Origin: a virus
Reading direction: 5' to 3' (one strand)
Virus record (IMG/VR): IMGVR_UViG_3300047284_000378
DNA: 64,000 nt
Shown here piece by piece: positions 20,049 through 33,078 of the stretch. Below the pieces are notes generated by a model. It made no database searches, had not been told where the DNA came from, and saw only the letters and a program-made list of their open reading frames with translations. Within the stretch, counting starts at the first letter, position 1. The number at the start of each line of letters is the position of its first letter. The translations under genes and the position numbers were made by a program.

Positions 20049-20051
20049 ATT

Positions 20052-20288
20052 ATGAAAGTTATCAGTATCAATAACGAAACACAAGATAAACGCAAACAGG
20101 ATATGCTAGAGGTGATAGACTATGTCAGGGATTTAGTAGAAAAAGGCGAAATCAAAGAATTCGTGGCTGCTAGTATGGACGCTGACGGAACCGCGCAAAT
20201 TCACGTTTCTGCCCTGGATTTACCTGGTAGTATTGGGCTTTTTGAGATAGGAAAACACCTATTAATCGCACAAGAATCCGGTATTTGA
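20052..20288 (+). CDS. Hypothetical protein
   Basis: ORF track. Confidence 0.6.
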   Translation: MKVISINNETQDKRKQDMLEVIDYVRDLVEKGEIKEFVAASMDADGTAQIHVSALDLPGSIGLFEIGKHLLIAQESGI

Positions 20289-20301
20289 AAGTTTCGAATA
20301 A

Positions 20302-20308
20302 ATAAATA
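20302..20308 (+). promoter_or_regulatory. T4-late-like promoter motif ATAAATA
   Basis: Upstream of the ferritin-like pair. Confidence 0.55.
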
Positions 20309-20345
20309 TCATAAGCATTCATGCTTTAATTTAGGAGAAATTTTC

Positions 20346-21095
20346 ATGCAGATGACCGGTGAACAATTCGTAGAAGAACTATGGGAAGAGAACCAAGTTC
20401 TTTACAAAGCAAGCCAAATTCAAATCAAGGCTTTCTATGACAGTAACCCCAGCAAGGAAAAACTATACAATAACTTCGTGCGTAGAATGGTCAACGAGCG
20501 TATGAACATGGTTGAAATCGCCAAAGCCATCGCAGCAGCACCATTAGACAAGGATCCAAAAGAACTTGTTTCATTGGCTAAGCAGATGTTAGACGAAGCC
20601 AATCATTATCGTATGGTTTTTGATATCGTTCCTTACGTCAGTGGTTACGATGTTGATCTTGCTACAGCAGTTCCAACAGAACTAGCAGATCTAAAGACCA
20701 AAGGCGCTCGCGTAGCAGAAAGATATAACTGCGAGAACGATCCAATCGCTCTAGCACTATATCAAGCTATCGTTGAAGGCCACGCTAGCTGCAACTGGCA
20801 AGTTATGGCAGATTCTTTAACTGACCCTGTTCTAAGCACAACATATGCTAAGATCGCAGCAGACGAGAGATTTCATGCTAAGTTAGGTAAGACCAGCCTA
20901 GCAAAGATGCTAGACACAGAAGAAAAGCAGCAGTATGCTCGTGAACTAGCAAAGAAAATGAGAAAAGATCTTTATGACATCAACTGTGGTGGTAACATCG
21001 CTATTGAAGAAAGTCGTAAAATGATCCAAGAGTACTACGGTGAAGATTGGATTGCTGGCAAGCATGAGACTGTAGAACTAAAAGCAATTTATTAA
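20346..21095 (+). CDS. Ferritin-like diiron protein A
   Basis: E(RMN)...DEANHY...VEG...DERFH = E-ExxH-E-ExxH ligand set; RBS AGGAG. Confidence 0.75.
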   Translation: MQMTGEQFVEELWEENQVLYKASQIQIKAFYDSNPSKEKLYNNFVRRMVNERMNMVEIAKAIAAAPLDKDPKELVSLAKQMLDEANHYRMVFDIVPYVSGYDVDLATAVPTELADLKTKGARVAERYNCENDPIALALYQAIVEGHASCNWQVMADSLTDPVLSTTYAKIAADERFHAKLGKTSLAKMLDTEEKQQYARELAKKMRKDLYDINCGGNIAIEESRKMIQEYYGEDWIAGKHETVELKAIY

Positions 21096-21114
21096 TCATA
21101 GAGGAACCATTATT

Positions 21115-21888
21115 ATGATCAAGTATGATACAGCAGAACTAGAAAAGATGGTATCCGATGGCTCTGAGTTTAGCGCAGATGTAAAAGAGTTTGTTGCTAA
21201 AATCGAAGCAGACAGCGAAGCTCTTTTCCAAGCTTCTGAAGCACAAGTAGAAGCATATTACAAGAGTGTTTCTGACAAGAAGCAATTGGCCAAGCACTTC
21301 CAAGGTCGTATGGTTTGTGAAAGAATGAACCTTATCGAAATCTGCAACACCATCGCTAATGCTCCAGTTGACATGGATCCAAAAGAGCTACAGCTTCTAA
21401 GCAAGCAGGCTCTAGACGAAGCCAATCACTTCCGTATGGTAAAAGGTGTAGTAGAGTACCTAGGTGGTGAGCCAGTTGACGTAGAGGCAGCTGTCGAGTT
21501 CGAACTAAACAAGAACAAAGACATCAAGGGTGCAAAACTATTAGAGAAGTACAACTGCCAGAATGATGAAATCGCCCTAGGCGTATATCAACTCCTAGCA
21601 GAAGGCCGCGCAGCACGTAACTGGGCTATGATGGCTAAGACTGTTGAAGATCAGTTCATCGCAGAAACATATGCAAAAATTGCTAAGGATGAAAAATTCC
21701 ATAGCCAATTAGGTCGTCGTAGACTAATGCAGTTATGCGATACAATTGAAAAGCAACAACACGCTCTAAGTATTGCTGCTCAGATGCGTTTGGACCTTTT
21801 CGACATCAACTGCAAGAACACAGTTGAGTTAGAAAGCAGCCTTCAGTTGATGAAGGATGCCTACGGTTACGAGAAAACTACTGCCTAA
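21115..21888 (+). CDS. Ferritin-like diiron protein B (paralogue of A)
   Basis: E(RMN)...DEANHF...AEG...DEKFH; RBS GAGGA. Confidence 0.75.
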   Translation: MIKYDTAELEKMVSDGSEFSADVKEFVAKIEADSEALFQASEAQVEAYYKSVSDKKQLAKHFQGRMVCERMNLIEICNTIANAPVDMDPKELQLLSKQALDEANHFRMVKGVVEYLGGEPVDVEAAVEFELNKNKDIKGAKLLEKYNCQNDEIALGVYQLLAEGRAARNWAMMAKTVEDQFIAETYAKIAKDEKFHSQLGRRRLMQLCDTIEKQQHALSIAAQMRLDLFDINCKNTVELESSLQLMKDAYGYEKTTA

Positions 21889-21900
21889 ATAGGATATCGC

Positions 21901-22494
21901 GTGAAAATAGCTATCAGCCAATCTGAATATCACCTCGGAAACAGCGAACTAGCTCATGATTGCTTAACACAGGATTGGTATAGTTTCGTGGGACACCACG
22001 AAATTATACCTGTTCCTAATATCAATAGCGATACTTTCCATAATTTCGATATGTTGATCCTCAGCGGAGGCAATGCCACTGCTGCGAGATCTCGTACCGA
22101 AGCAGGCTTATTTAATTACGCAGTAAAAAATAACATACCAGTGCTAGGTGTATGCCATGGCGCTTTCTTCATCGCACAGTTGACCGGTGCCGAAGTCGTA
22201 GATATCGAAGGTCACAGAAACGTAGAACACATCGTCAAGCTCGACGGCAGAAACGTCATAGTCAATAGCTTCCACGGCAGTACCATAACTAAACTAGGCC
22301 AAGACTACGATGCCATCGCAGTTGACACTGAAGGTTACATAGAAGGTTTTAAGCACAAAGAAAAACCAATCTGGGGTCTAATCTGGCATCCAGAACGTCA
22401 AGAAGTTCCTATGTTGCCCGAAGACCTAGATAAGCTTCTACAGGTCAATGATAGAATATTCAATCAAAATTTTGATTGGATGGACGCTCTATAA
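21901..22494 (+). CDS. Class I glutamine amidotransferase / PuuD-like gamma-glutamyl hydrolase (peptidase C26)
   Basis: LILSGG, PVLGVCHG, VNSFH, WHPE. Confidence 0.85.
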   Translation: MKIAISQSEYHLGNSELAHDCLTQDWYSFVGHHEIIPVPNINSDTFHNFDMLILSGGNATAARSRTEAGLFNYAVKNNIPVLGVCHGAFFIAQLTGAEVVDIEGHRNVEHIVKLDGRNVIVNSFHGSTITKLGQDYDAIAVDTEGYIEGFKHKEKPIWGLIWHPERQEVPMLPEDLDKLLQVNDRIFNQNFDWMDAL

Positions 22495-22521
22495 TTTTTT
22501 TTCCTCCTCCTATAATACTTC

Positions 22522-22528
22522 ATAAATA
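22522..22528 (+). promoter_or_regulatory. T4-late-like promoter motif ATAAATA
   Basis: Upstream of the sulfotransferase-like gene. Confidence 0.5.
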
Positions 22529-22551
22529 CTTGCCTAACTAAAAGGTATCGT

Positions 22552-23181
22552 ATGCTTCCCAAAAGAATTTTTTTTACAGGTGTTCCTGGTAGTCGTTGGA
22601 GTGGTCTGGCCCAACATATCGAATCAAATGTTCCAGGGATGAATATTTCAGATAGAAACGACGAAAGAGAATTCGCTCATTGCGTAGCACACTCAGGGAT
22701 GCCTGCAGGACACAAAGGTGCATATTTCGGAACAGGCATGGAATATGCGGCCAAGTTAGAAGATGCAGATTATCTAGACAGTCCCTGGAAAACTCCAGGT
22801 GGTACTAGAATTGTAAAGAGCCACGAGTGGGCTTTCCAGCTCGATCGTATCAAAGAGATGTATCCGGAAGATTGGATCGTCTTGGTATATCGTCCCGACG
22901 AAGTCAGCAGTGCTTGGTGGCATCAGATCGGTGGATTCACTATCAAGTATCCAAACTATGATCATTATGTAGACAGCATCGGGATGAATCACAATATCAG
23001 ACTGATGAACATCGAAATCCTCAAGTATGCCAAGAAGCACGATGCTAGATGGTATCATATCGGTCAGAAATTTTTCAAGGAAGTATTCGGAGTCGATGTA
23101 CCTTGGTTTCCAGACTTCTTTCACGATGTGATGGTAACCGCTATCCCTAATAGCACCAAATGTGGCGAAAAAGCCACATAA
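22552..23181 (+). CDS. Sulfotransferase-fold protein (TGxPGSxWS family)
   Basis: FTGVPGSRWS, RIVKSHEW, LVYRPDEVS. Confidence 0.6.
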   Translation: MLPKRIFFTGVPGSRWSGLAQHIESNVPGMNISDRNDEREFAHCVAHSGMPAGHKGAYFGTGMEYAAKLEDADYLDSPWKTPGGTRIVKSHEWAFQLDRIKEMYPEDWIVLVYRPDEVSSAWWHQIGGFTIKYPNYDHYVDSIGMNHNIRLMNIEILKYAKKHDARWYHIGQKFFKEVFGVDVPWFPDFFHDVMVTAIPNSTKCGEKAT

Positions 23182-23197
23182 ACTGCTGATATTTTTC

Positions 23198-23226
23198 TTG
23201 ACATATAAATAAACTGACTATACAAT
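23198..23226 (+). promoter_or_regulatory. sigma70-type promoter
   Basis: TTGACA-17-TACAAT. Confidence 0.75.
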
Positions 23227-23284
23227 AGATAGACTTGTTAGAGATGCAATAACCCTTAGGGTTAGTCAATTTTACCAAAAGTGG

Positions 23285-23313
23285 TTGACAGCAGAACTAA
23301 TTAAGTATATAAT
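23285..23313 (+). promoter_or_regulatory. sigma70-type promoter driving leader and tRNA island
   Basis: TTGACA-17-TATAAT. Confidence 0.85.
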
Positions 23314-23364
23314 AGACACATGAGTTAGGAATTCTCCTAACAATTTAAGGAAACAGAGAAGCAA

Positions 23365-23505
23365 ATGAAAGCAACGTCGTTACATAGACAAGTTAAACAC
23401 ATAGCCCAGTTGGGAGGCTTTATGCCCTCTTATTGGTCAGTATGTGAGATTAGTCTATCTAATGATCGTACACCAGAATCGGGGTCCGCGGAGATCATGA
23501 GTTAA
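23365..23505 (+). CDS. Putative leader peptide (46 aa)
   Basis: MKATSLHRQVKHIAQLGGFMPSYWSVCEISLSNDRTPESGSAEIMS; AAGGA upstream; precedes terminator. Confidence 0.55.
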   Translation: MKATSLHRQVKHIAQLGGFMPSYWSVCEISLSNDRTPESGSAEIMS

Positions 23506-23532
23506 CCGTAAAGTAAACTCAAACTTCAAAGG

Positions 23533-23565
23533 ACCCCAGGATTAAAAACCCTGGGGTTTTTGTTT
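23533..23565 (+). terminator. Intrinsic terminator of putative attenuator
   Basis: ACCCCAGG-loop-CCTGGGGT followed by TTTTTGTTT. Confidence 0.85.
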
Positions 23566-23579
23566 GTTAAAAGGAAAAA

Positions 23580-23762
23580 ATGGAACACAAAGAAATTGAT
23601 TACACTAAATTGAACAAAAAAATCGTTGAACAGGCTTACGTGTCTGCTTATACTCTAAGTGATGAACAGACACGCAAACTTATTCAAGATAAGTTTGATC
23701 GAGCCCAAAAGCTCAGAGATGCCTTAGAGAAGAGTAATCTTCTCTGGCATACTGATCGATAA
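23580..23762 (+). CDS. Hypothetical protein (first gene after attenuator)
   Basis: RBS AAAGGA; 60 aa. Confidence 0.6.
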   Translation: MEHKEIDYTKLNKKIVEQAYVSAYTLSDEQTRKLIQDKFDRAQKLRDALEKSNLLWHTDR

Positions 23763-23764
23763 GG

Positions 23765-24005
23765 TTCAGCGGTAAAGTGCGATAGGGAACGCGACCCTGC
23801 AGGGCACTCTAAACATCCTGCTACTAATGTGGGCGGCCTACCTGATGGTAAGTCTAGGGCGATAACCTAGATGTGTAAAACGGTAGCGTATTAAAGTATA
23901 TTGCCGAACAGTCAAATGGCGCAAGCCGATGAGCAGTATACTTTAATACACACTCTTCTTTCGCCTTACGACGGCGTCAAAAAGCATAGCGGAGAGTGTT
24001 ACAAA
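23765..24005 (+). ncRNA. Unassigned structured RNA(s)
   Basis: Hairpins AGTGC/GCACT, TCTAGG/CCTAGA, 17-bp GTATTAAAGTATATTGC/GCAGTATACTTTAATAC, ACACTCT/AGAGTGT; no ORF. Confidence 0.5.
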
Positions 24006-24009
24006 TCAT

Positions 24010-24098
24010 GGAGCTTGATCCCTACGGCGGACTGTAAATCCGTTGCCTTAATATGTAGGGTGGCTGGCAATTAGGTTCGATTCCTTCAGGCTCCACCA
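24010..24098 (+). tRNA. tRNA-Tyr(GTA), aberrant 9/3 fold without a canonical D-arm
   Basis: GCGGA-CTGTAAA-TCCGT anticodon arm; 9-bp acceptor; AGG-TTCGATT-CCT; ACCA end. Confidence 0.7.
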
Positions 24099-24107
24099 AA
24101 ATTTAGG

Positions 24108-24136
24108 TTGACATTTTTTGAGTTTGGTGCTATACT
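24108..24136 (+). promoter_or_regulatory. sigma70-type promoter
   Basis: TTGACA-17-TATACT with TG extension. Confidence 0.8.
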
Positions 24137-24169
24137 AATAACACTGAGAAACTTAGAAAAGGTTCCAAA

Positions 24170-24364
24170 ATGCAAGTTCATCGAGTATTTGTTGAAGTTG
24201 GTTATTATGCAGGCGGTGGCACCGATGGTGCTTTTATCTCCGAAACTATTAACCATTTCGAAACTACAGTTAATGCTAATTCTTCAGGTGACGCTGTTAG
24301 GATTGCACAGGCTCAATTCGGTGGTCAAGAACGTTGTCGCGTAACCTATCGCGGCACGATGTAA
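24170..24364 (+). CDS. Hypothetical protein
   Basis: 64 aa ORF between promoter and tRNAs. Confidence 0.6.
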   Translation: MQVHRVFVEVGYYAGGGTDGAFISETINHFETTVNANSSGDAVRIAQAQFGGQERCRVTYRGTM

Positions 24365-24369
24365 GATTT

Positions 24370-24444
24370 GGTCTCAAAGTGTTCATGGACGCACACGACA
24401 CTGTCACTGTCGAAGAAGGGGATCGTTACCCCTTGGGACCGCCA
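24370..24444 (+). tRNA. tRNA-Asp(GTC)
   Basis: Cloverleaf, CGACA-CTGTCAC-TGTCG, CCA. Confidence 0.9.
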
Positions 24445-24453
24445 AAGTTTTAT

Positions 24454-24528
24454 TCCAGAGTAGCACAGCGGCAGTGCAGTTGACTGTTAATCAATTGGTC
24501 GGTGGTTCGATCCCACCCTCTGGAGCCA
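24454..24528 (+). tRNA. tRNA-Asn(GTT)
   Basis: Cloverleaf, CCA. Confidence 0.95.
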
Positions 24529-24533
24529 GTTTT

Positions 24534-24608
24534 GCACCGTTCGTCTATCGGTTAGGACACCCGCCTTTCACGCAGGTAAGAGGAGTTCGATTCTCCTACG
24601 GTGTACCA
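24534..24608 (+). tRNA. tRNA-Glu(TTC)
   Basis: Cloverleaf, CCA. Confidence 0.9.
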
Positions 24609-24616
24609 GTTTTATT

Positions 24617-24692
24617 GCGGGAGTAGCTCAGTTGGTAGAGCGCAACCTTGCCAAGGTTGAGGTCGCGAGTTCGAGACTCGTCTCCCGCTCCA
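24617..24692 (+). tRNA. tRNA-Gly(GCC)
   Basis: Canonical cloverleaf. Confidence 0.95.
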
Positions 24693-24694
24693 TT

Positions 24695-24768
24695 ATCTCG
24701 GTGGTGTAATGGCAGCATAGCAGTCTCCAAAACTGTTTGTGGGGGTTCGAGTCCCTCCCGGGATGCCA
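24695..24768 (+). tRNA. tRNA-Trp(CCA)
   Basis: Cloverleaf; U11-A24 pair; G27-U43. Confidence 0.92.
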
Positions 24769-24780
24769 ATAATTCAATAT

Positions 24781-24858
24781 GCACAGGTGGCAGAGAGGCC
24801 CAATGCAAGAGTCTGCAAAACTCTAAAACCGTCGGTTCGAATCCGACCCTGTGCTCCA
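24781..24858 (+). tRNA. tRNA-Cys(GCA)
   Basis: Cloverleaf, U73, CCA. Confidence 0.92.
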
Positions 24859-24865
24859 AGTTTAT

Positions 24866-24965
24866 GCCTCTGTAGCTTAATTGGTAAAGACGCGAGCTTA
24901 TACCTCGCCAAAGCACCGGCCAGATAAGCCGGCGTGTGCAGGTTCGAGTCCTGCCAGAGGCACCA
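24866..24965 (+). tRNA. tRNA with TAT anticodon (Ile?) and very long variable arm
   Basis: GCGAG-CTTATAC-CTCGC; ~30-nt V region with CCGGC/GCCGG stem; A73. Confidence 0.8.
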
Positions 24966-24970
24966 TATAT

Positions 24971-25049
24971 ACCCCTATGGACAAATTGGTAAAGTCGTCT
25001 CTCTCAAAAGGAGAAGTTGTTCTCCGTTCGAATCGGAGTAGGGGTACCA
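24971..25049 (+). tRNA. tRNA-Leu(CAA), short variable region
   Basis: Cloverleaf, CCA. Confidence 0.88.
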
Positions 25050-25055
25050 AGTTAA

Positions 25056-25147
25056 GGAAGCGTGGCAGAGTCTGGTTTATTGCACCGGTCTTGAAAACCG
25101 ACGTCTTAGAAATAGGGCCGTGAGTTCGAATCTCACCGCTTCCACCA
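25056..25147 (+). tRNA. tRNA-Ser(TGA)
   Basis: Cloverleaf with long V-arm. Confidence 0.92.
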
Positions 25148-25162
25148 TATAAGGAGATAGTC

Positions 25163-25357
25163 ATGGAAGTCAGCGCAGTTACCTATTACGGTTGGAGAGA
25201 CGGTTTCCAAACAGTAGAAAAACGCACTACCTACGATTATCCCAAGAGCAATGATGTTACCGTAGTCGAACATAGATCCTATCAGATTACGCTGTATACT
25301 GATAAAGGAACTTTAGAAACACATAATCGTGGTAGCAACATTGACCAGATGGTATAA
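25163..25357 (+). CDS. Hypothetical protein
   Basis: RBS AAGGAG; ends just before tRNA-Ile. Confidence 0.6.
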   Translation: MEVSAVTYYGWRDGFQTVEKRTTYDYPKSNDVTVVEHRSYQITLYTDKGTLETHNRGSNIDQMV

Positions 25358-25358
25358 T

Positions 25359-25434
25359 GCCTGTTTAGCTCAATCGGGAGAGCATCGTCTTGATAAGGCG
25401 GAGGTACCAGGATCGAAACCTGGAACAGGCACCA
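25359..25434 (+). tRNA. tRNA-Ile(GAT)
   Basis: Cloverleaf, CCA. Confidence 0.92.
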
Positions 25435-25451
25435 TTATAAGGAGAAATCAA

Positions 25452-25520
25452 AATGGGGCATTGGCAGTTGTTATTTTGGTTATCATAGGTTTAATTTGGA
25501 TTGACAAACATCTAAAGTGA
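25452..25520 (+). CDS. Small hydrophobic peptide (22 aa)
   Basis: RBS AAGGAG; MGALAVVILVIIGLIWIDKHLK. Confidence 0.45.
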   Translation, partial: NGALAVVILVIIGLIWIDKHLK

Positions 25521-25529
25521 AGTTACAAT
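25501..25529 (+). promoter_or_regulatory. sigma70-type promoter
   Basis: TTGACA-17-TACAAT. Confidence 0.75.
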
Positions 25530-25555
25530 ACTAAAACTGAAAAAAGGAGAATGGC

Positions 25556-25613
25556 ATGAAACGTGGTAAACGTTAGTGTCGCCCTGGTACTCCGTATGGT
25601 CCAGGGTTGGCAC
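25556..25613 (+). other. Micro-ORF MKRGKR followed by hairpin
   Basis: AAAGGAG RBS, ATGAAACGTGGTAAACGTTAG, then CCCTGG/CCAGGG stem. Confidence 0.4.
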
Positions 25614-25635
25614 AGTAAATCATCTAGTACGACGA

Positions 25636-25711
25636 CCCTGTGTAGCGTTAATGGTAGCGCACTTGACTCTTAATCAATGAGGTGTGAGTTCAAATCTCAC
25701 TGCAGGGACCA
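25636..25711 (+). tRNA. tRNA-Lys(CTT)
   Basis: Cloverleaf, CCA. Confidence 0.9.
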
Positions 25712-25714
25712 TAT

Positions 25715-25789
25715 GGGAGTATAGCTCAGCGGTAGAGCAGCGGACTTTTAATCCGTTGGTCCAGGGTTCAAATCCCTGTGCTCCTACCA
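25715..25789 (+). tRNA. tRNA-Lys(TTT)
   Basis: Cloverleaf, CCA. Confidence 0.95.
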
Positions 25790-25868
25790 TATAAAAACAC
25801 ACCGGTCTACCGCCACCGAGAGGTAGTTAAAGACAATGACAAGCAACAGCCAGTGTGTTTCTATATGG
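25787..25868 (+). ncRNA. Inverted-repeat-closed small RNA element E1
   Basis: CCATATAAAAACACAC ... GTGTGTTTCTATATGG; internal CTACC/GGTAG hairpin. Confidence 0.55.
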
Positions 25869-26766
25869 TAAAGAATTCAAGGGCAGCTTAATGTCCTGTA
25901 GGCGGTTCGCCGCTTACGAAGAATAACTCCTGTGAGGGAGCCAACAGATGTATGCCTACATAAGTCTGCCAGCGATGGTTCATTTAAGCAAGCCTGCTCA
26001 CTCCGGTGACGGAGCGTTCACTGATAAGACCGGTGGATGTAACAGCAAAGCTGATGTAGTGGAAAGAATGTTTGCTCAAGCGCCGCAAGGTAACGCAAGC
26101 AGATAGAGAGTAACAGGTGGTGCTGACCTCACTACAAAACCAATCAGTTAGTTGGTATGAGAAAGGGTAGTGTTCGGTTCCGAAGAGTCGCGTCTAAGGG
26201 GTCGAGCGCAGTTTGAGTGGTTAGTGGTAACGTAGCAATACGTTGACGCCGATCGCGAAGAACGACTGAGTAGCTCGCGAGGCAAAAGGTACGTGGTGTG
26301 TTGTATTCAGTAGAGCAAAACTTTATTGAGCAACAGAGGCAGCACATCGCAGTAGGTTCAGTTATAGCACAATTGGTAGTGCATCTCCCCTGTTAAGGAG
26401 ACGGCTGAAGGTTCAACTCCTTCTAACGTTCAAAAAAGCAAAGACTGCCTCGGTCATATGTGAAAAGCATCTAATACTTAGGGCGCAAGCCAACTAAGTC
26501 AGACGTAGCTCGCAAGGTGAAATCTGTTTATGCTGGAAGTTTCGTAAGGTGTTAGCGCACCTGAATAGCTCGCAAGGTTAACGGAATAGATAGCGTAGAA
26601 TAGCATATGACGACAAGACTACTGCCTGTCTTTAAAAACGGCGATGCTGATAGTGGACATAGGTACCGCAAGGGCTTATGTGGATGTCTAGAGAAGCTGT
26701 GCTCGCAAGGTGCAGTATAATGCTAGAGGCACTATTAGCTAACGTGTAATCTCAGCGTTAGCACCA
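25867..26766 (+). ncRNA. Large structured RNA, GOLLD-like (~900 nt)
   Basis: ORF-free, many hairpins capped by GCAA/GNRA loops, in a phage tRNA array, embedded tRNA-like domain, 3' GTAATCTCAG hairpin; size and context fit GOLLD. Confidence 0.7.
26361..26427 (+). ncRNA. tRNA-Asn-like domain embedded in large RNA
   Basis: D-arm GCAC/GTGC, TCTCC-CCTGTTAA-GGAGA (8-nt loop), GAAGG-TTCAACT-CCTTC; only a 4-bp acceptor. Confidence 0.65.
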
Positions 26767-26873
26767 TATAAAAACACATTCAAGGCAAAGTACAAGCCTA
26801 GCAGAAGGTGCAGCCACGCCCGGCAACGAGCGTCGGTGGACGGTGCTACTCCGTCGAGTGTGTTTCTATATGG
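26764..26873 (+). ncRNA. Inverted-repeat-closed small RNA element E2
   Basis: Same termini as E1; internal AGGC/GCCT and GACGG/CCGTC hairpins. Confidence 0.55.
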
Positions 26874-26946
26874 TAATGTAGCATAATGGTAGTGCAACAC
26901 CTTCATACGGTGCGCTGTGAAAGTTCGACTCTTTCCATTACCACCA
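26872..26946 (+). tRNA. tRNA(CAT), Met or Ile2
   Basis: Cloverleaf, loop TTCATAC. Confidence 0.85.
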
Positions 26947-26951
26947 TATTT

Positions 26952-27026
26952 GGGGGCAGCAGAGGGCTGCGGTGGATCCTTGCAAGATTCATGACTACAA
27001 GGGTTCGATACCCTGGGCCTCCACCA
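26952..27026 (+). tRNA. tRNA-Ala(TGC), reduced D-loop
   Basis: G3-U70; GCAG-AGGG-CTGC D-arm. Confidence 0.8.
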
Positions 27027-27032
27027 ATTTTC

Positions 27033-27106
27033 GCCCTTTTAGTTTAATGGTAGAGCACCGGTTTTGTAATCCGGGAATGGTGGTTCGATTCCATCAAGGG
27101 GCACCA
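27033..27106 (+). tRNA. tRNA-Thr(TGT)
   Basis: Cloverleaf, CCA. Confidence 0.88.
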
Positions 27107-27109
27107 AGT

Positions 27110-27328
27110 TTTGTTGTAGTGTCAGCAAGAGAAAGTCACGCTATAAAGGTTTCTTCGAAGGACTGATATAGTAGAAGGTGGCGGGTTCGATGCCCGACGG
27201 ATCGGAAGATCCGGGTACATGGTGGCGTACTATCTGGTCCGGTATCCCAAGTAACGTACCGAGTCCTGCCCGGGCTAGTTAATCCAGGTGAATGGTGCCA
27301 ATAACGATGGTGGCACATCTACAACAAA
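27110..27328 (+). ncRNA. Unassigned ~220-nt multibranched RNA
   Basis: Closing stem TTTGTTGTAG/CTACAACAAA; internal T-loop-like CGGG-TTCGATG-CCCG and several hairpins. Confidence 0.6.
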
Positions 27329-27339
27329 TTTATTTCTGA

Positions 27340-27413
27340 TCGGGTGTAGTGTAATGGTAACACCACAGACTTTGACTCTGTTATTCTAGGTTCGAGCCCT
27401 AGCACCCGTGCCA
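27340..27413 (+). tRNA. tRNA-Gln(TTG)
   Basis: Cloverleaf, unpaired 1-72. Confidence 0.92.
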
Positions 27414-27414
27414 T

Positions 27415-27488
27415 GCTCCTATAGTTAAATGGAAGAACACATCCTTGGTAAGGATGCGATACAAGTTCGATTCTTGTTAGGAGCACCA
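27415..27488 (+). tRNA. tRNA-Thr(GGT)
   Basis: Cloverleaf, CCA. Confidence 0.92.
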
Positions 27489-27493
27489 TATAT

Positions 27494-27568
27494 CGGCCTG
27501 TAGCTCAGTGGAAGAGTTCTGGTCTTCGAAACCAGCTGTCGGGAGTTCGAATCTCTCCAGGCCGGCCA
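27494..27568 (+). tRNA. tRNA-Arg(TCG)
   Basis: Cloverleaf, CCA. Confidence 0.92.
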
Positions 27569-27585
27569 TATCCTAGGAGATTGTT

Positions 27586-27792
27586 ATGAAAGCAACAATG
27601 TTTAAAAATCGTTTTAATAATGAGCATTTTGTCTGTGACGATATCCGTGTGACCGAGAATATCGACGGTGTCGAGTATCTTATCGTACATCGACCCAATG
27701 AACATCGTCCGCTTAAAATGCGTCGCGATGCATTAGAGAAGATCAATACCCCAGTAACTCAGCGGAATAAGAGTACTACGCTACGAACGTAG
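27586..27792 (+). CDS. Hypothetical protein; 3' end overlaps tRNA-Arg(ACG)
   Basis: RBS AGGAG; stop lies inside the tRNA. Confidence 0.6.
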   Translation: MKATMFKNRFNNEHFVCDDIRVTENIDGVEYLIVHRPNEHRPLKMRRDALEKINTPVTQRNKSTTLRT

Positions 27793-27825
27793 GAGTCGGA
27801 GGTTCGAGTCCTTCCTGGGGTGCCA
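27748..27825 (+). tRNA. tRNA-Arg(ACG)
   Basis: CTACG-CTACGAA-CGTAG; CCA. Confidence 0.9.
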
Positions 27826-27831
27826 AACAAT

Positions 27832-27905
27832 ATCGCGTTGGACTTCTGGGAGGTCACTAGGCTTTCAACCTAGATAGGCGGGTTCGATCCCCGTACGCGA
27901 TACCA
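27832..27905 (+). tRNA. tRNA-Glu(TTC), second copy with divergent body
   Basis: Cloverleaf, CCA. Confidence 0.88.
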
Positions 27906-27910
27906 ACAAT

Positions 27911-27983
27911 GGTGTTGTTAGTGTAATGGCTGCACGGCTGTCTGTGAAACAGTAAGGGAGGGTTCGATTCCCCACTTCACCCC
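27911..27983 (+). tRNA. tRNA-His(GTG), imperfect acceptor and T stems
   Basis: G-1:C73; anticodon arm intact; 3' side 2 nt short. Confidence 0.7.
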
Positions 27984-27988
27984 ATGTA

Positions 27989-28063
27989 TAGTTCCTTAGT
28001 TCAATGGTAGAACGATACTTTGACATGGTATAGACACAAGTTCAATTCTTGTAGGAACTACCA
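27989..28063 (+). tRNA. tRNA-Val(GAC)
   Basis: Cloverleaf, CCA. Confidence 0.9.
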
Positions 28064-28154
28064 TATGTAAACACATTAGTGAAAGAACGGTCGTAGACCT
28101 TAGGGCTTAGCCTGCGGCATTGTCCTTCGACGGTGGCTAGTGTGTTTGCATATG
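28062..28154 (+). ncRNA. Inverted-repeat-closed small RNA element E3
   Basis: CATATGTAAACACATTAG / CTAGTGTGTTTGCATATG (G-U pairs), related to E1/E2 termini. Confidence 0.55.
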
Positions 28155-28159
28155 TTAAT

Positions 28160-28235
28160 GCCGCTTTAGCTGATGTGGTCATAGCACCGGTTTGAAGCAC
28201 CGAGGAACTAGGTTCGATCCCTAGAGGCGGCACCA
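28160..28235 (+). tRNA. tRNA-Phe(GAA)
   Basis: Cloverleaf, CCA. Confidence 0.9.
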
Positions 28236-28307
28236 GAGTACTCCTTATTGTGTACTGTGCGTTTCATGATAAGGGAAGGGAGAAGGCACAGTTCTCCCGA
28301 GAGATAT

Positions 28308-28384
28308 GCGGATGTGACGGAATTGGTATACGTATTAGACTTAAAATCTAAGTACTGAGGGTTCGAGTCCCTCCATCCGTACCA
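28308..28384 (+). tRNA. tRNA-Leu(TAA), short variable region
   Basis: Leu-type D-arm, CCA. Confidence 0.9.
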
Positions 28385-28385
28385 T

Positions 28386-28462
28386 GCCCAGATGGCGGAA
28401 TTGGTATACGCACTATGTTGAGGTCGTAGGCGCTGCGGGTTCGAGTCCCGCTCTGGGTACCA
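28386..28462 (+). tRNA. tRNA-Leu(GAG), short variable region
   Basis: Leu-type D-arm, CCA. Confidence 0.9.
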
Positions 28463-28469
28463 AAAAATT

Positions 28470-28541
28470 GCCTCTGCTGATGGAGCAGTGCCAGGTCTTC
28501 TAAACCAGGTTATGGGAGTTCGAATCTCTCCAGAGGCGCCA
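28470..28541 (+). tRNA. tRNA-Arg(TCT), reduced D-arm
   Basis: 72 nt; acceptor and T arm canonical. Confidence 0.75.
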
Positions 28542-28549
28542 TATAAAGG

Positions 28550-28578
28550 TTGACAGTAACAAACAAAGGCTATATAAT
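28550..28578 (+). promoter_or_regulatory. sigma70-type promoter
   Basis: TTGACA-17-TATAAT. Confidence 0.85.
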
Positions 28579-28614
28579 ATACACTTGTTCGTTAAAAATT
28601 CAAAGTAGTTAATT

Positions 28615-28695
28615 GCCCCGGTGGTGGAATTGGTAGACACGCTGGTCTTAGAAGCCAGTCTTCGGGTACGAGTTCGAGTCTCGTCTGGGGCACCA
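28615..28695 (+). tRNA. tRNA-Leu(TAG)
   Basis: Leu-type D-arm, mini V-arm with CTTCGG. Confidence 0.92.
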
Positions 28696-28868
28696 TTAAA
28701 AAATAACATTGACAGGTATCGTCTATGGACGCATAGACTTACGAAGAATAGGGCCATCTTACTCTTCTGAAAAAACTGCGGGCAATGGCTTATGAGGAGA
28801 ATCGAACTCCACTCAGAAATTCGCTCCATCCCATAGGGTGCAATGTTATTCTTTAATGGTAAGTTTTT

Positions 28869-28947
28869 CCGGGTGTAGCTTAGTCTGGCTTAAAGCGCCT
28901 GCTTTGGGAGCAGGAGATCGTGAGTTCGAATCCCACTTCCCGGACCA
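28869..28947 (+). tRNA. tRNA-Pro(TGG)
   Basis: Cloverleaf, CCA. Confidence 0.92.
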
Positions 28948-28952
28948 ATTTT

Positions 28953-29028
28953 GCATCCTTAACTCAGTTGGTAGAGTTCCGCCTTTACACGGCGGCTGTC
29001 GGGAGTTCGAGTCTCTCAGGATGCACCA
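28953..29028 (+). tRNA. tRNA-Val(TAC)
   Basis: Canonical cloverleaf. Confidence 0.95.
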
Positions 29029-29036
29029 TATAGTAC

Positions 29037-29130
29037 GGTGAGTTGGATGAGCTGGTTTAAATCACTTTCCTGCTAAGAAAGAGTTCGATGTAAAGTCGGG
29101 CCGTGGGTTCGAATCCCACACTCACCACCA
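29037..29130 (+). tRNA. tRNA-Ser(GCT)
   Basis: Long V-arm, CCA. Confidence 0.9.
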
Positions 29131-29150
29131 ATTTTAAAAAGGAAAAATAA

Positions 29151-29330
29151 ATGCTTAAACCCGGTCCAAACTATAGAATGAGTAAACAAGGTAAAAGATT
29201 TGCTGCTCTCATCATTGATTCTCATCAGCGAGGTGAATTTCTTCGCTCGACTGTTCAGGCAGAATTAGCAGCGGCTATTCAACCCAAGCGTGAAAAACCA
29301 CGCCGTGATGTTCCACAAGGTAATCAGTAA
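29151..29330 (+). CDS. Hypothetical protein (59 aa)
   Basis: RBS AAAGGA; MLKPGPNYRMSK. Confidence 0.6.
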   Translation: MLKPGPNYRMSKQGKRFAALIIDSHQRGEFLRSTVQAELAAAIQPKREKPRRDVPQGNQ

Positions 29331-29332
29331 TC

Positions 29333-29590
29333 ATGGTTGCACGTAATGATATCACGGGCGATGCAATTCAAACCAAAAGTGCATCGGAAGCATATCGAGA
29401 TAATTACGATTTAATTTTTAGGAAAAATAATATGCAGGTAAGAGTAGCAGAAGAAGGTAAAAAGATTGGAACTTGTGGTTGTGGTCGTTCGCCCACCGGC
29501 GATTGTATCGGTTGGCACGGTCTCAGCGAAACTGTCTATCAAGAAAAACTTCAGAAGTATCTTGAAGAACAGAAGGTCGCTGATAAGTAA
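29333..29590 (+). CDS. Small protein with CDGSH-like Fe-S motif
   Basis: CGCGRSPTGDCIGWH. Confidence 0.6.
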   Translation: MVARNDITGDAIQTKSASEAYRDNYDLIFRKNNMQVRVAEEGKKIGTCGCGRSPTGDCIGWHGLSETVYQEKLQKYLEEQKVADK

Positions 29591-29596
29591 AAAGTT

Positions 29597-29672
29597 GGGG
29601 GTATAGCTCAGCTGGGAGAGCAGTAGCTTTGCAAGCTAAAGGTCGTCGGTTCGATCCCGTCTACCTCCACCA
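29597..29672 (+). tRNA. tRNA-Ala(TGC)
   Basis: Canonical, G3-U70. Confidence 0.95.
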
Positions 29673-29677
29673 AATTT

Positions 29678-29751
29678 GCTCTGTTAGTTAAATGGTATAA
29701 CAGTTGCCTTGTAAGCATCAGTCGTTGGTTCGATTCCATCACGGAGCACCA
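29678..29751 (+). tRNA. tRNA-Thr(TGT), second copy
   Basis: Cloverleaf, CCA. Confidence 0.88.
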
Positions 29752-29767
29752 GTATTACCAAAATGTC

Positions 29768-29795
29768 TTGACAAAGACGTTAATGAGTGTATAAT
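29768..29795 (+). promoter_or_regulatory. sigma70-type promoter
   Basis: TTGACA-16-TATAAT. Confidence 0.75.
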
Positions 29796-29801
29796 ATTTT
29801 T

Positions 29802-30056
29802 GTTACGGTAGAAATACTGTAACCGGTGAAGCAGAAGGTAGATGAGGATAGACGTTGTATGGCTTCATGCCGTACAGACTAATTCTGGCAAAGACGCTTG
29901 AAACGTCTCCGTGCTTGGGTGATCCGATTTTATAGACTGTCATTTGCTGATCGGAAATATTCAGGCCACTGTCGCCTGTGTATTGCACGTTGTCTAGACC
30001 GACGACTTCGAACAATAGGTCTTGTCAATTGTCCGGTCTATTACTTGACCTTTTGC
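29802..30056 (+). ncRNA. Unassigned ~255-nt structured RNA upstream of rpoZ
   Basis: 5' GAAA hairpin at predicted TSS; long-range GCAGAAGGT/ACCTTTTGC and ATAGAC/GTCTAT stems enclosing four hairpins. Confidence 0.55.
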
Positions 30057-30085
30057 CGACCCGTCAACAACATCAAGGAAGCTAC

Positions 30086-30331
30086 ATGGCTAGGATTTCA
30101 GCGGAAGAAGCGGCAGCAGCGATAGGTAACAGATTTGACTTGGTGTTAGTAGCCAGTCAACGAGCGAGAGAGATTAAGAATGGGTCTAGGCCTAGGATAG
30201 CTGATCAGAACTCTACACCCTGTGTAGCAGCTCTTAAAGAAATCGAAGAAGGCAAGTATACCTACAACGACTATTTGGTCACAGTACAACGAAAGAAAAA
30301 AGGACACAGAGATGAATATTTCCCTACGTAA
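30086..30331 (+). CDS. rpoZ: RNA polymerase omega subunit
   Basis: MARIS...IGNRFDLVLVASQRAREI...ALKEIEEG. Confidence 0.88.
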   Translation: MARISAEEAAAAIGNRFDLVLVASQRAREIKNGSRPRIADQNSTPCVAALKEIEEGKYTYNDYLVTVQRKKKGHRDEYFPT

Positions 30332-30884
30332 AGCAAACGCAATCCAAAACAACATCAATGACGCTATCCGTAGTGTCAAGATCGAATCTAGCATCGAACT
30401 CAACGAGTTTCAGGATGTGGCTGTAGAGCTGCAAAAGGCCAACGATCTGGTCATCGCCAACGATGCCCGTAGGCAGAAACTGTTGTTGGCTCTGTACAAC
30501 ATCAGAGGCCTAGTCGGCACAGCCAATGCCAGCTGCGGTATCGATCTTAGCTTGGCCAAGGCTGCGTTTATCGACAAGCGTATCGCTCAGCTCGAAGAAT
30601 TGGCATCGTTAAAGGCAGTCACATCATTAGATGTGATCAAAGGTAAACTTGAGAAAATCAAAAGCCTTAAAGACGAAGCTCGTAGCCGTATCTATGGCTA
30701 CGGTGACACCGTGAGCACCACAGTGGTCAGCCAAAGTCAGATCGATCAGGCCAAGGCAGAGATTCTAAATCTCAAGAAGCAGAAGCAAAAGCTCAACGAC
30801 GAAGTGCTTGAGCTTAACATCAAAACTGAGATTCCTCTCAGCGATGAAACAGTAGCTCTTCTACAAGCAGAAGGCCTACTGTAA
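30312..30884 (+). CDS. Coiled-coil hypothetical protein
   Basis: ORF track; helical composition. Confidence 0.7.
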   Translation: MNISLRKANAIQNNINDAIRSVKIESSIELNEFQDVAVELQKANDLVIANDARRQKLLLALYNIRGLVGTANASCGIDLSLAKAAFIDKRIAQLEELASLKAVTSLDVIKGKLEKIKSLKDEARSRIYGYGDTVSTTVVSQSQIDQAKAEILNLKKQKQKLNDEVLELNIKTEIPLSDETVALLQAEGLL

Positions 30885-30889
30885 CAGAC

Positions 30890-31090
30890 CCCGGGGTCCC
30901 TTCCTCGTTATTAAAGGGGGTAATTGGCTTCACCAGAATGCCAGGGTACAAACGGTAACGACCCCAAGGCCCTCTTTAGGGGCGACTTGAGACACCGTGG
31001 CGGCAGAAGTAGAACTGACGACAAAGATGCAAATACTAACGGACAGGGTAACAACTCAGTCTAGGGCGGAACAGGGAACCGTAGCTAGAC
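30890..31090 (+). ncRNA. Unassigned structured RNA
   Basis: GGGGTC/GACCCC, TGGC/GCCA, GCCC/GGGGC, GTCTAG/CTAGAC pairings; no ORF. Confidence 0.45.
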
Positions 31091-31201
31091 ACTTTTAATG
31101 AGTAGATTGACGAGATTTCGACACTCCGGCAAGAGTAACATTATCAAGTCGATTTGCCGATCGAGGGGGCCTATAATTTCCCTTCAGTCTACTCCTTAAA
31201 A
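31091..31201 (+). ncRNA. Long-stem-closed small RNA element E5
   Basis: CTTTTAATGAGTAGATTGA / TCAGTCTACTCCTTAAAAG with internal GCAA hairpin. Confidence 0.5.
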
Positions 31202-31212
31202 GTAAAGTCTAT

Positions 31213-31286
31213 CGCGGGATAGAGAAACGGTAACTCAAGAGTCTCATAAGCTCTAGATCCTGGTTCGATTCCAGGTCCCGCAACCA
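31213..31286 (+). tRNA. tRNA-fMet-like (CAT)
   Basis: C1-A72 mismatch; CAT anticodon. Confidence 0.88.
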
Positions 31287-31290
31287 TTCT

Positions 31291-31365
31291 CTCGCTATAG
31301 TTCAATGGACAGAACGGTTCTCTCCTAAAGAACAAATCCAGGTTCGACTCCTGGTGGCGAGGCCA
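31291..31365 (+). tRNA. tRNA-Arg(CCT)
   Basis: Cloverleaf, CCA. Confidence 0.92.
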
Positions 31366-31382
31366 GAAGTAAATAGTTTTAT

Positions 31383-31456
31383 GCGGGGTTCGTATAGTGG
31401 TAATACCTCAGCCTTCCAAGCTGATGCGGAGAGTTCGATTCTCTTACCCCGCTCCA
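31383..31456 (+). tRNA. tRNA-Gly(TCC)
   Basis: Cloverleaf, CCA. Confidence 0.92.
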
Positions 31457-32371
31457 TTAATCTACAAAATGAAAAACTACTTCGGTAGTTTTTCTTTTGA
31501 CAAAATAATCTAAATCACTATCGGGATTGATAGACCCCACAGGAAATTCCAGAGGAGCGATCAGCTTATTATCTGTCACAGATTCTAGCCAATTTTGAAA
31601 TTCACAACTTTTATAAATTGCAGTTCGCTGGTCATCCAATTTTAAATCTAAATTTCCAAAAGTATAATCTATTCCTGATATCGCAGGAGAATTAGTAGAT
31701 TCGTCATCGAGGAAACTTTGATAAAATGTTTTTCCTAGTATTTCATTAGAAAATACTACATCATAAAATGTATCATTTTTTAGAGTACTATGATACAGGT
31801 CTTGTTCTTCTTGAGTGATTTCAAACCATAAGTCCAACCCGTGATCGTTTTGATCTATGTGTGTTTGTAAACGCTTATGTCCGTACTGTTCGGCACTGAG
31901 ATAATTTTTGGTAAAATCTGAATACAGTTCTAATTTATGAACCAATGAATTTATTATCTTCGATGATTCGGAAATAGAATTTTCCCAAGATGACGATTTA
32001 ATCCAATGGTCGGGGTAATGAGTTTGCAGGTAAAAATTTATACCGACGAATATGTTATGAACATCATTACACCAGCGTTGATCTCGATTGAATGTATCAT
32101 GTAAAGTGGGAAACTCAAATTGAGTTATATTTTTTTGTTTTAAAAGTTTTTTAAAATTTGAAATTTCATTTAATAACTGTGAATATATTTCTATATGCCT
32201 ATCGTCTCGAAGAACAATCGGTGCATGACCATATAAATTAAGTATTCCTTTAATAGGACATATTTTTTGAAGTTTTACACAATTATCAAACCAACGACGC
32301 AGTACCGAATTATCGAGCACATCAATTACTATCTGTGCATTTGAATCATTTGATTTTAGAATTATTTTCAT
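31457..32371 (-). CDS. Hypothetical protein (AT-rich)
   Basis: 304-aa ORF; TAAATA upstream on minus strand. Confidence 0.7.
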   Translation of the reverse strand: MKIILKSNDSNAQIVIDVLDNSVLRRWFDNCVKLQKICPIKGILNLYGHAPIVLRDDRHIEIYSQLLNEISNFKKLLKQKNITQFEFPTLHDTFNRDQRWCNDVHNIFVGINFYLQTHYPDHWIKSSSWENSISESSKIINSLVHKLELYSDFTKNYLSAEQYGHKRLQTHIDQNDHGLDLWFEITQEEQDLYHSTLKNDTFYDVVFSNEILGKTFYQSFLDDESTNSPAISGIDYTFGNLDLKLDDQRTAIYKSCEFQNWLESVTDNKLIAPLEFPVGSINPDSDLDYFVKRKTTEVVFHFVD

Positions 32372-32401
32372 AGTGTTATTTAATCACTAAATATTTCACC
32401 T

Positions 32402-32980
32402 ATGTACAATATAATAGACCACAACGAAACTTTTCAAAAATTTGATTTTAGTTCCACGATCAGTCAAAAAGATAATAACGAAGCCATAGGCATTATAAAA
32501 AATATTATCGCTGATGGGAATTACTTCACGAATAGCCCTAAGTTCCAAACTAAAGAAAATATTTTTTCTAGATCTGAAGCTATATGGTTAAAATACAGAA
32601 TGAGTTTCTTGTTCTCGGTGTTTATGTACTTAGGTCGTGAAGTAAAGGTCAGTAACATGATGGCCTGGTCATTCATGACTAATCTTGAGGGTGCCGAGGA
32701 TCGAGAAAAACTATGGCATCATCATTGGCATCCAACTCGCCCCGAAGCTAAAATGCTCAGCGGTATTTGGTATCTACATATACCAGAAGACGTGAAAGAT
32801 CGTGACTATTGCGGAACAGAAATGGCTCCAAATGGCATCAAAGAGGATGGCAAATTTTTTGTCAAACCCACCGATTACAATTGGTTGATATATCCCAGTG
32901 ATCGGTGGCATAGACCCGGTATCGTACAGAGCAACGATTACAGATTTATTTTAGCCGCGGACATCGAATATCTTCCTTGA
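32402..32980 (+). CDS. Putative 2OG-Fe(II) oxygenase-like protein
   Basis: WHHHWH, LSGIWYL, IYPSDRWHRP pattern of a double-stranded beta-helix fold. Confidence 0.6.
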   Translation: MYNIIDHNETFQKFDFSSTISQKDNNEAIGIIKNIIADGNYFTNSPKFQTKENIFSRSEAIWLKYRMSFLFSVFMYLGREVKVSNMMAWSFMTNLEGAEDREKLWHHHWHPTRPEAKMLSGIWYLHIPEDVKDRDYCGTEMAPNGIKEDGKFFVKPTDYNWLIYPSDRWHRPGIVQSNDYRFILAADIEYLP

Positions 32981-32987
32981 TTCAAAA

Positions 32988-33077
32988 GGAGGATGCAGCA
33001 AGATGGTTCTTGCACCTGTTTGGAAAACAGGCGGCTGGCGTTGGCTGGCCGGGGTTCGATTCCTCCTTCCTCCGCCA
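32988..33077 (+). tRNA. tRNA-Ser(GGA), 8/4 allo-tRNA-like fold
   Basis: 8-bp acceptor, 6-bp D-stem with 4-nt loop, 7-bp V-arm, 4-bp T-stem, G73. Confidence 0.8.
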
Positions 33078-33078
33078 C

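Follow-up and report, generated by a model that had tools for sequence, protein, structure and literature searches.

In classical leader-peptide attenuators, among them trpL, hisL, leuL and pheL and the multivalent thrL and ilvL, codons for one to three amino acids occur in runs, and the genes under control are those for the synthesis of the same amino acids. A further group of leader attenuators senses antibiotics and governs resistance genes, as in mef/mel(msrD), vmlR and bmrCD. The element described here lies in a stretch of 64,000 nucleotides of DNA from an uncultured giant phage (nt, nucleotides; IMG/VR record IMGVR_UViG_3300047284_000378, hereafter the window), ahead of an island of transfer RNA (tRNA) genes, and its closest published counterpart is the upstream open reading frame (uORF) attenuator of whiB7 (wblC) in mycobacteria and other Actinobacteria. 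The amino-acid shortages to which the whiB7 attenuator responds are those of the residues present in its uORF, and in Mycobacterium smegmatis, where the uORF contains 19 of the 20 amino acids, the single Trp codon is both needed and sufficient for the Trp response (PMC10274678). Loss of the start codon raises basal read-through, which makes read-through the default; in M. tuberculosis several residues are missing from the uORF, and whiB7 uORFs are enriched in Ala and variable in their residue set (PMC10274678). These results indicate that the logic we propose for the phage locus is workable. On comparative and thermodynamic grounds, we suggest that the phage element is a ribosome-operated transcription attenuator that heads the tRNA island and acts as a general probe of decoding capacity, a reading to which we give a probability of roughly 0.72. 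A full-text literature search found no description of a leader-peptide attenuator ahead of phage tRNA genes.

Architecture of the leader and sampling of its relatives

The leader region is organized as follows, with positions counted from the first letter of the window.

23198..23226, plus strand: promoter P1, TTGACA-17-TACAAT, scoring 11/12, with -35 and -10 blocks conserved in relatives
23285..23313, plus strand: promoter P2, TTGACA-17-TATAAT, scoring 12/12, conserved in relatives
23324..23341, plus strand: 7-bp hairpin of the 5' untranslated region (UTR), GTTAGGA-attc-TCCTAAC, near the transcript 5' end
23365..23505, plus strand: leader open reading frame (ORF) of 46 codons plus TAA, with all 20 amino acids and 39 distinct codons
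23396..23444, plus strand: ORF-internal hairpin over codons ~11-27, with CCA/TGG pairing at the Trp codon; moderately supported
23481..23487, plus strand: 5' strand of antiterminator helix 1, GGGGTCC, in codons 39-41
23490..23527, plus strand: inner antiterminator, made of helix 2 (GGAG/CTTC) and the helix 3 hairpin (GAGTT/AACTC), with the stop codon (23503-05) at the apex
23531..23537, plus strand: shared strand GGACCCC, which is both the antiterminator 3' strand and the start of the terminator 5' arm
23529..23569, plus strand: intrinsic terminator with core stem 23534-40 / 23550-56, a 9-nt loop at 23541-49 and a U tract from 23557

A sequence-only reading of the window had described a perfect sigma70 promoter, a 46-codon ORF containing every amino acid and a strong intrinsic terminator, and each of these was recovered: promoter P2 reaches the full score, the ORF occupies 23365-23505, and the terminator has its stem, loop and U tract. 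The same reading placed the terminator directly ahead of the tRNAs, which was inaccurate, as ~445 nt separate it from the first tRNA, with a 60-amino-acid (aa) ORF and ~250 nt in between. Promoter P2 is the probable start of the leader transcript, and a site scoring at least 10/12 occurs within 166 nt of the leader ATG in 94 of 97 relatives. The stem in the 5' UTR has an altered sequence but, judged by eye, retained pairing in L001, L002, L003 and L005 (labels of this form denote the loci of relatives), and an A/G-rich ribosome-binding region lies between this hairpin and the leader ORF. In the window, the ORF-internal hairpin belongs to a longer predicted stem spanning 23374-23469. The terminator stem is rich in G and C and can be extended to 12 bp (23529-23540 / 23550-23561), and the tail that follows the core stem reads TTTTTGTTTGTT; a simple terminator scan that allows loops of up to 8 nt misses this terminator with its 9-nt loop.

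Relatives were collected in two ways. The starting set consisted of 13 IMG/VR loci found through the 60-aa downstream protein, and a terminator pattern with its variable positions left open then added at least 119 further IMG/VR loci; the antiterminator 5' strand formed no part of that search pattern. A second sample of 54 loci, independent of the terminator sequence, was obtained with a profile of the 60-aa protein. Leader statistics refer to 97 distinct homologous leader peptides (mean length 46.7 aa), and helix and covariation counts to an RNA alignment of 89 sequences. The element is present in at least 120 IMG/VR phage contigs with lengths of up to ~400 kb. Near and distant DNA searches with the locus, searches with the 60-aa protein and searches with the switch region alone found no relative among GenBank phages, and the family is known solely from uncultured viral contigs.

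The leader ORF has the signature of a translated sequence

The leader ORF, which the sequence-only reading took for a leader peptide, is conserved in related phages, with substitutions of the coding type. Single-base codon differences among the distinct leaders fall at positions 1, 2 and 3 in the proportions 445/387/1314, and 52% of substitutions are synonymous where 21% would be expected, a pattern that argues that the ORF is translated. Insertions and deletions in the ORF alignment are in frame. The ORF frame is the only open one of six, the other two sense frames averaging 2.9-4.2 stops, and every leader has either a Shine-Dalgarno (SD) sequence or a leaderless-type start. In 23 relatives (L004, L017, L018, L028, L030, L035 and 17 others) the -10 box ends 5-12 nt before the leader ATG, and these leaders are probably translated from leaderless mRNAs; the UTR of the remaining leaders measures ~45-65 nt.

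This signature bears on the idea that the locus is a structured non-coding RNA, either riboswitch-like or a T-box-like tRNA sensor, in which the ORF is incidental. The 253-nt transcript does fold well as a whole (minimum free energy -81.2 kcal/mol, z = -5.2), and some of its segments are conserved at the nucleotide level. The third-position and synonymous bias, the in-frame indels, the single open frame and the SD or leaderless starts nevertheless point to translation, and an Rfam scan of positions 20000-35000 at E <= 1 gave only tRNA-clan, GOLLD and chance plastid matches, with no T-box and no family beyond tRNA and GOLLD. We therefore regard a purely non-coding element as very improbable.

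An antiterminator and a terminator share one strand

The central feature of the switch is a strand that can pair in two ways. GGGGTCC at 23481-87, within the ORF, is fully complementary to GGACCCC at 23531-37, and the last four bases of the latter are the first four of the terminator 5' arm. This pairing had been pointed out in the sequence-only reading together with an outward AATC/GATT extension; the core is exact, whereas the extension folds in the window and is not conserved in relatives, and was rejected as a conserved part of the antiterminator. Another outer extension, between CACCAG and the terminator 3' arm, was also set aside, with a mean pair probability of ~0.3 and no consistent covariation.

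Comparison of relatives revealed repeated compensatory switches in the GGGGTCC/GGACCCC helix. The 7-bp helix 1 is paired in 99.4% of the alignment cells, and its outer pair is G-C in 44 sequences, A-U in 39 and G-U in 3, with ~10-12 independent switches between G-C and A-U on a tree built from other columns and with G-U intermediates observed. The base that is shared with the terminator varies in concert with the terminator 3' arm (C-G 49, U-G 25, U-A 22, C-A 0), and the terminator pair 265:281 of the RNA alignment likewise occurs as CG (45), UG (26) and UA (18). Further compensatory forms include GGGTTCC/GGAACCC and a different helix in L153. The second stem (GGAG/CUYC) and the apical hairpin also vary in sequence while retaining pairing in relatives. 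The antiterminator 5' strand stands at a constant distance in relatives, where it encodes Gly-Ser in 47 leaders and Arg/Gly-Val in 50; the retention of GGGTCC in two reading frames indicates that the strand is conserved as RNA and not as codons.

Both conformers form when folded, and they are nearly isoenergetic. Mean energies are -28.5 kcal/mol for the antiterminator and -27.5 kcal/mol for the terminator, and the corresponding values in the window are -29.8 and -26.8 kcal/mol. For 94% of sequences the most stable predicted fold of the nascent RNA includes the antiterminator, and the pair probability of helix 1 is ~0.8 even in the full-length RNA with the terminator present. Since RNAalifold returned the terminator alone from the 89-sequence alignment, the antiterminator and the ORF-internal hairpin were tested with named structures and per-sequence folds. 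The ORF-internal hairpin is paired in 72% of cells, shows modest covariation and does not involve the antiterminator strand. No pairing of the 1:2 anti-antiterminator type with the antiterminator strand was found, which suggests that an untranslated leader should read through and not super-attenuate.

The stop codon of the leader falls at the apex of the antiterminator. In 86 of 98 leaders it follows the 5' strand by 14-18 nt, and for the most part it precedes the 3' strand by 21-27 nt; known footprint sizes suggest that a ribosome finishing the leader would sterically block the antiterminator.

The leader retains a complete amino-acid alphabet

The codon runs that usually serve as regulatory codons in attenuators are absent from the leader, in which each amino acid occurs about once. 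All 20 amino acids are present in 81% of the 97 distinct leaders, while 15 leaders lack one and 3 lack two. The sequence-only reading had conceded that 20 residues in 46 codons could arise by chance, a view that the family comparison does not bear out. Random draws from the family or window composition give a complete set in 3.1-3.6% of cases, real 46-aa windows of this phage's own proteins in 3.0%, and shuffling of alignment columns in 15.7% (maximum 28%). A tree-aware simulation with independent columns, column frequencies and fitted rates gave 16% (standard deviation 6%, maximum 44%), and none of its 2000 replicates reached the observed value. In the five other reading frames the frequency is 0-4%, and only 1 of 73 small ORFs of the window is complete. 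After thinning to 27 representatives at no more than 45% identity, 63% remain complete against 11% expected.

Of 44 leaders recovered independently through the downstream gene, 41 have all 20 amino acids, including 16 of the 19 whose terminators miss the search pattern. Counts of residues are strongly under-dispersed, with exactly one Cys in 82% of peptides, one His in 85% and one Trp in 91%, yet Cys, His, Tyr and Phe are spread over many alignment columns (27, 21, 20 and 21, respectively), so that the presence of a residue is conserved and its position is not. The alphabet is complete ahead of the antiterminator strand in 89% of the leaders that have all 20, and by codon 34 in the window; the C-terminal tail, which is unable to sense, is dispensable for completeness. 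Taken across the family, these patterns indicate that the full amino-acid set is kept by selection.

Codons are diversified beyond what the amino acids impose. Each leader contains on average 35.6 distinct codons, compared with 32.3 +/- 0.2 upon synonymous redraw, and the 39 distinct codons of the window leader exceed the maximum of 37 found in 46-codon windows of the long ORFs (at least 150 aa) of the window. The window leader engages 28 of the 33 phage anticodon species, a level reached by 0.18% of long-ORF windows. The apparent selection for every amino acid and for many codons suggests that the leader probes general decoding capacity and not a single amino acid.

A related design would be a translation-coupled attenuator of the pyrBI kind, which reports only bulk ribosome availability or coupling and for which the full alphabet is a by-product. 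The architecture would indeed answer any delay, poor initiation included, and its default state is read-through. What such a device does not predict is an alphabet that is specific to one frame and maintained by compensating gains and losses over ~100 divergent leaders, far above the tree-aware expectation, nor the over-diversification of synonymous codons, for which no other constraint was identified. We consider it improbable that the leader reports bulk availability alone.

A tRNA island follows the switch

The features downstream of the terminator are the following.

23580..23762, plus strand: conserved 60-aa ORF with an SD sequence and an ATG ~15 nt past the U tract, and no promoter of its own
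24010..24098, plus strand: tRNA-Tyr(GTA)-like gene, aberrant in its D region and the first tRNA that read-through would reach, with a weak Rfam match
24108..24136, plus strand: next promoter, TTGACA-17-TATACT with TG, scoring 11/12
24370..33073, plus strand: tRNA island with 35 ARAGORN calls

In all ~120 loci whose downstream sequence exceeds ~520 nt, the terminator is followed at a distance of 169-1198 nt by the start of a tRNA array on the same strand. The arrays behind the switch contain up to 41 tRNA genes and there are almost no tRNAs upstream, which places the element at the 5' boundary of the tRNA island in these phages. No promoter scoring at least 10/12 lies between the terminator and 24108 in the window, and none precedes the first tRNA in ~55% of relatives. 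Leaders that lack an amino acid were compared with the arrays behind them. In L050, where Trp is absent from the leader, no tRNA-Trp occurs among the 29 tRNAs, and in L035, where Cys is absent, no tRNA-Cys occurs among 29; L026, L044 and L072 do not follow this pattern, and the loci are truncated.

A small protein is encoded in ~70 of the 96 distinct intervals between terminator and tRNAs, starting ~18 nt after the terminator. In the window and in ~70 relatives it has ~50-60 aa and the motif VEQAY...EQxxKLIQDKFxRA, and it always follows immediately after the terminator. The 60-aa protein of the window belongs to no family in Pfam, PHROGs or ESM Atlas; as the first product of read-through, it may be part of the same circuit. 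L165 encodes a homologue of this protein that is preceded only by a different small terminator-like hairpin, with no recognizable leader ORF or antiterminator. A 209-aa protein encoded upstream of the element also obtained no function from Pfam, PHROGs or ESM Atlas.

The tRNA-Tyr(GTA)-like gene was not called by ARAGORN and has a different and longer D region; in the anticodon arm, the T arm and the CCA end it aligns with the ARAGORN-called tRNA-Tyr found at the same position in L002, L004 and L008. The ~250 nt before it (23763-24009) contain no convincing ORF and no Rfam match, and may represent another small structured RNA. A 64-aa ORF lies between the promoter at 24108 and the ARAGORN-called array starting at 24370. 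Within the island, a full-length match to GOLLD RNA (RF02032; 216 bits, E = 2e-60) occupies 26293-26758 and has a tRNA-like match embedded in it at 26361-26427, and a further Rfam tRNA match of 97 nt (24866-24962, 57.6 bits), not called by ARAGORN, is located between tRNA-Cys and tRNA-Leu. Perfect 12/12 sigma-70 promoters at 28550-28578, 29768-29795 and 33079-33107, inside the island or ending it, indicate that the island is transcribed in several units. Elsewhere in the window, 2414-10264 and 46508-47956 contain cell-like auxiliary genes (CsgG-SH3, a FecR-domain protein, a CHASE2-adenylate/guanylate cyclase and a TctA transporter subunit), and an Mtd_N tropism-determinant domain is found at 36185-37915.

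A model of the switch and the points that weigh against it

In the model that we propose, host RNA polymerase would initiate at promoters P1 and P2 and synthesize a leader of ~245 nt carrying the 46-codon ORF, the last eight codons of which would supply the 5' half of a stem-loop antiterminator in three tiers, capped by the stop codon. RNA free of ribosomes would favour the antiterminator, and transcription would proceed to the 60-aa gene, then to the first tRNA and on into the array. A ribosome keeping pace with the polymerase would instead reach the end of the ORF, melt the 5' half of the antiterminator and fill its loop; the shared strand would thus be freed, the terminator would form and transcription would stop. 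Any delay of the ribosome within the first ~35 codons, including one caused by a missing or uncharged tRNA for any amino acid, would then result in more read-through. The geometry of the locus and the behaviour of known attenuators suggest that termination depends on where the ribosome stands and that a shortage of tRNA is the signal sensed in nature. The sequence-only reading had proposed such a general sensor of tRNA depletion, and each of the computational checks that it named spoke for that proposal.

A more far-reaching biological role can be proposed for such a device, and we judge its odds to be even. The switch would place the whole tRNA pool under surveillance, and the cleavage, depletion or uncharging of any host tRNA would lead the phage to make more of its own, an inducible counter-defence against, for example, anticodon nucleases. 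The terminated leader RNA or the peptide might additionally act in trans.

Several observations weigh against this model. Single codons are less sensitive than the codon runs of classical attenuators, and 18% of leaders lack one or two amino acids. Most relatives complete the alphabet only ~3 codons before the antiterminator strand, with at least 5 codons to spare in 12.5%; a stall that close may not free the strand, and some residues, often Glu, may go unsensed. Downstream, ~40% of relatives have a strong promoter between the terminator and most of the tRNAs, often just before the first, and the window has promoters past the switch at 24108, 25501, 28550, 29768 and 33079. Promoters before and inside the island imply that the switch controls only part of the tRNA output, and the one at 24108 makes the array from 24370 partly independent of it; read-through first reaches the 60-aa gene and the tRNA-Tyr-like gene. 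The peptide, finally, is under more constraint than a pure codon probe needs. The ratio of nonsynonymous to synonymous substitution rates (dN/dS) is ~0.25, a core AKQxGFMPxYW...NDRTPE is conserved, and G18, W24 and D34 are each kept in at least 90% of leaders. The DRTPE codons (23464-23478) are near-invariant even at the wobble position (GAT 60/60, ACA 60/60, CCA 59/60, GAG 57/60), which appears to reflect a constraint at the nucleotide or codon level that no reading accounts for. The core partly overlaps the ORF-internal hairpin, and a nascent-chain effect or an unrecognized RNA pairing is possibly behind its conservation.

Purifying selection on the peptide, with its fixed positions and core, would suit a conventional gene for a small protein, equipped with a promoter and a terminator, whose product acts in trans, for instance as a truncated helix-turn-helix-like regulator; the terminator would then simply end the transcript of this gene, and leakage past it would feed the downstream genes. 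Leader peptides with functions in trans exist, peTrpL being an example, and two of 73 leader members gave weak matches to the Pfam family HTH_19 (E = 0.011). Profile searches of Pfam and PDB with the leader peptide produced nothing significant, however, and an AlphaFold2 model from the 73-sequence alignment has no secondary structure and scores of 63 for the predicted local distance difference test (pLDDT) and 0.12 for predicted template modelling (pTM), which speaks weakly against a folded trans-acting protein. A trans-acting product would also leave unexplained why Cys, His, Tyr and Phe shift among 20-27 columns without loss of the complete alphabet, why GGGTCC is kept in two frames, why antiterminator and terminator covary three ways and why the stop codon sits at the apex. 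We find a simple protein-coding gene unlikely as an explanation of the locus, and a trans role could exist alongside attenuation.

The same conserved residues invite comparison with nascent-peptide arrest sensors of the TnaC or SecM type, in which case a particular ligand or factor would cause Trp...Asp-Arg-Thr-Pro-Glu to stall the ribosome, and that stall, in place of tRNA supply, would set the switch. Known arrest peptides such as TnaC and SecM use spaced Trp, Asp and Pro residues, and in addition to the retention of W24 and D34 and the wobble fixation described above, leaders widely retain the TP of the DRTPE core and have tails of near-constant length. The spacing is nevertheless unlike that of TnaC or SecM, and no homology to them was found in the Pfam and PDB profile searches. 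A ribosome halted at DRTPE would sit over or beside the antiterminator 5' strand and favour termination instead of induction, and an arrest sensor has no reason to contain all 20 amino acids or a high diversity of codons; the nucleotide-level conservation may reflect RNA pairing instead. Arrest at a specific motif thus seems a doubtful basis for the switch, and a ribosome-operated probe of general decoding capacity remains the reading that we prefer.

Comparison with known attenuators

Like the trp/his-type attenuators, the phage element has a short ORF in its leader and two hairpins that exclude each other, and in the model the outcome depends, as in those systems, on where the ribosome stands relative to the polymerase, with the antiterminator prevented once a ribosome has reached the end of the leader. 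The classical systems differ in their use of codon runs and of a 1:2 hairpin, whereas the phage leader contains each amino acid about once and stands before tRNA genes. In the antibiotic-sensing leaders, as proposed here, slowing of a ribosome in a short ORF relieves a downstream intrinsic terminator, but there a drug stalls the ribosome at particular motifs, the ORFs are short with an incomplete alphabet, and the targets are resistance proteins. T-box riboswitches share only the purpose of antitermination upon poor tRNA charging, as a T-box binds one specific tRNA directly and without translation.

The likeness to whiB7 is the closest. Both elements place a translated uORF before an antiterminator/terminator pair, and a stall anywhere in the whiB7 uORF induces read-through. 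The resemblance ends at function: the two are unrelated in sequence, the phage element has sigma-70 consensus promoters and no WhiB-family gene downstream, and it precedes viral tRNA genes where whiB7 controls a cellular transcription factor. The complete residue set is itself conserved in the phage element, unlike in whiB7.

Why phages carry large sets of tRNAs is a long-standing question, and recent papers (PMC10264068, PMC11555353, PMC12409363) argue that phage tRNAs replace host tRNAs destroyed by anticodon-nuclease defences. If the proposed model holds, decoding feeds back directly on the tRNA supply of these phages, through a compact natural sensor of translation capacity. The selection for a complete alphabet within ~46 codons is an unusual evolutionary signature that could be used to find similar sensors. 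The element would then be the first leader-peptide attenuator known to control tRNA genes, and would extend leader-peptide attenuation from amino-acid operons to the tRNA genes of phages.

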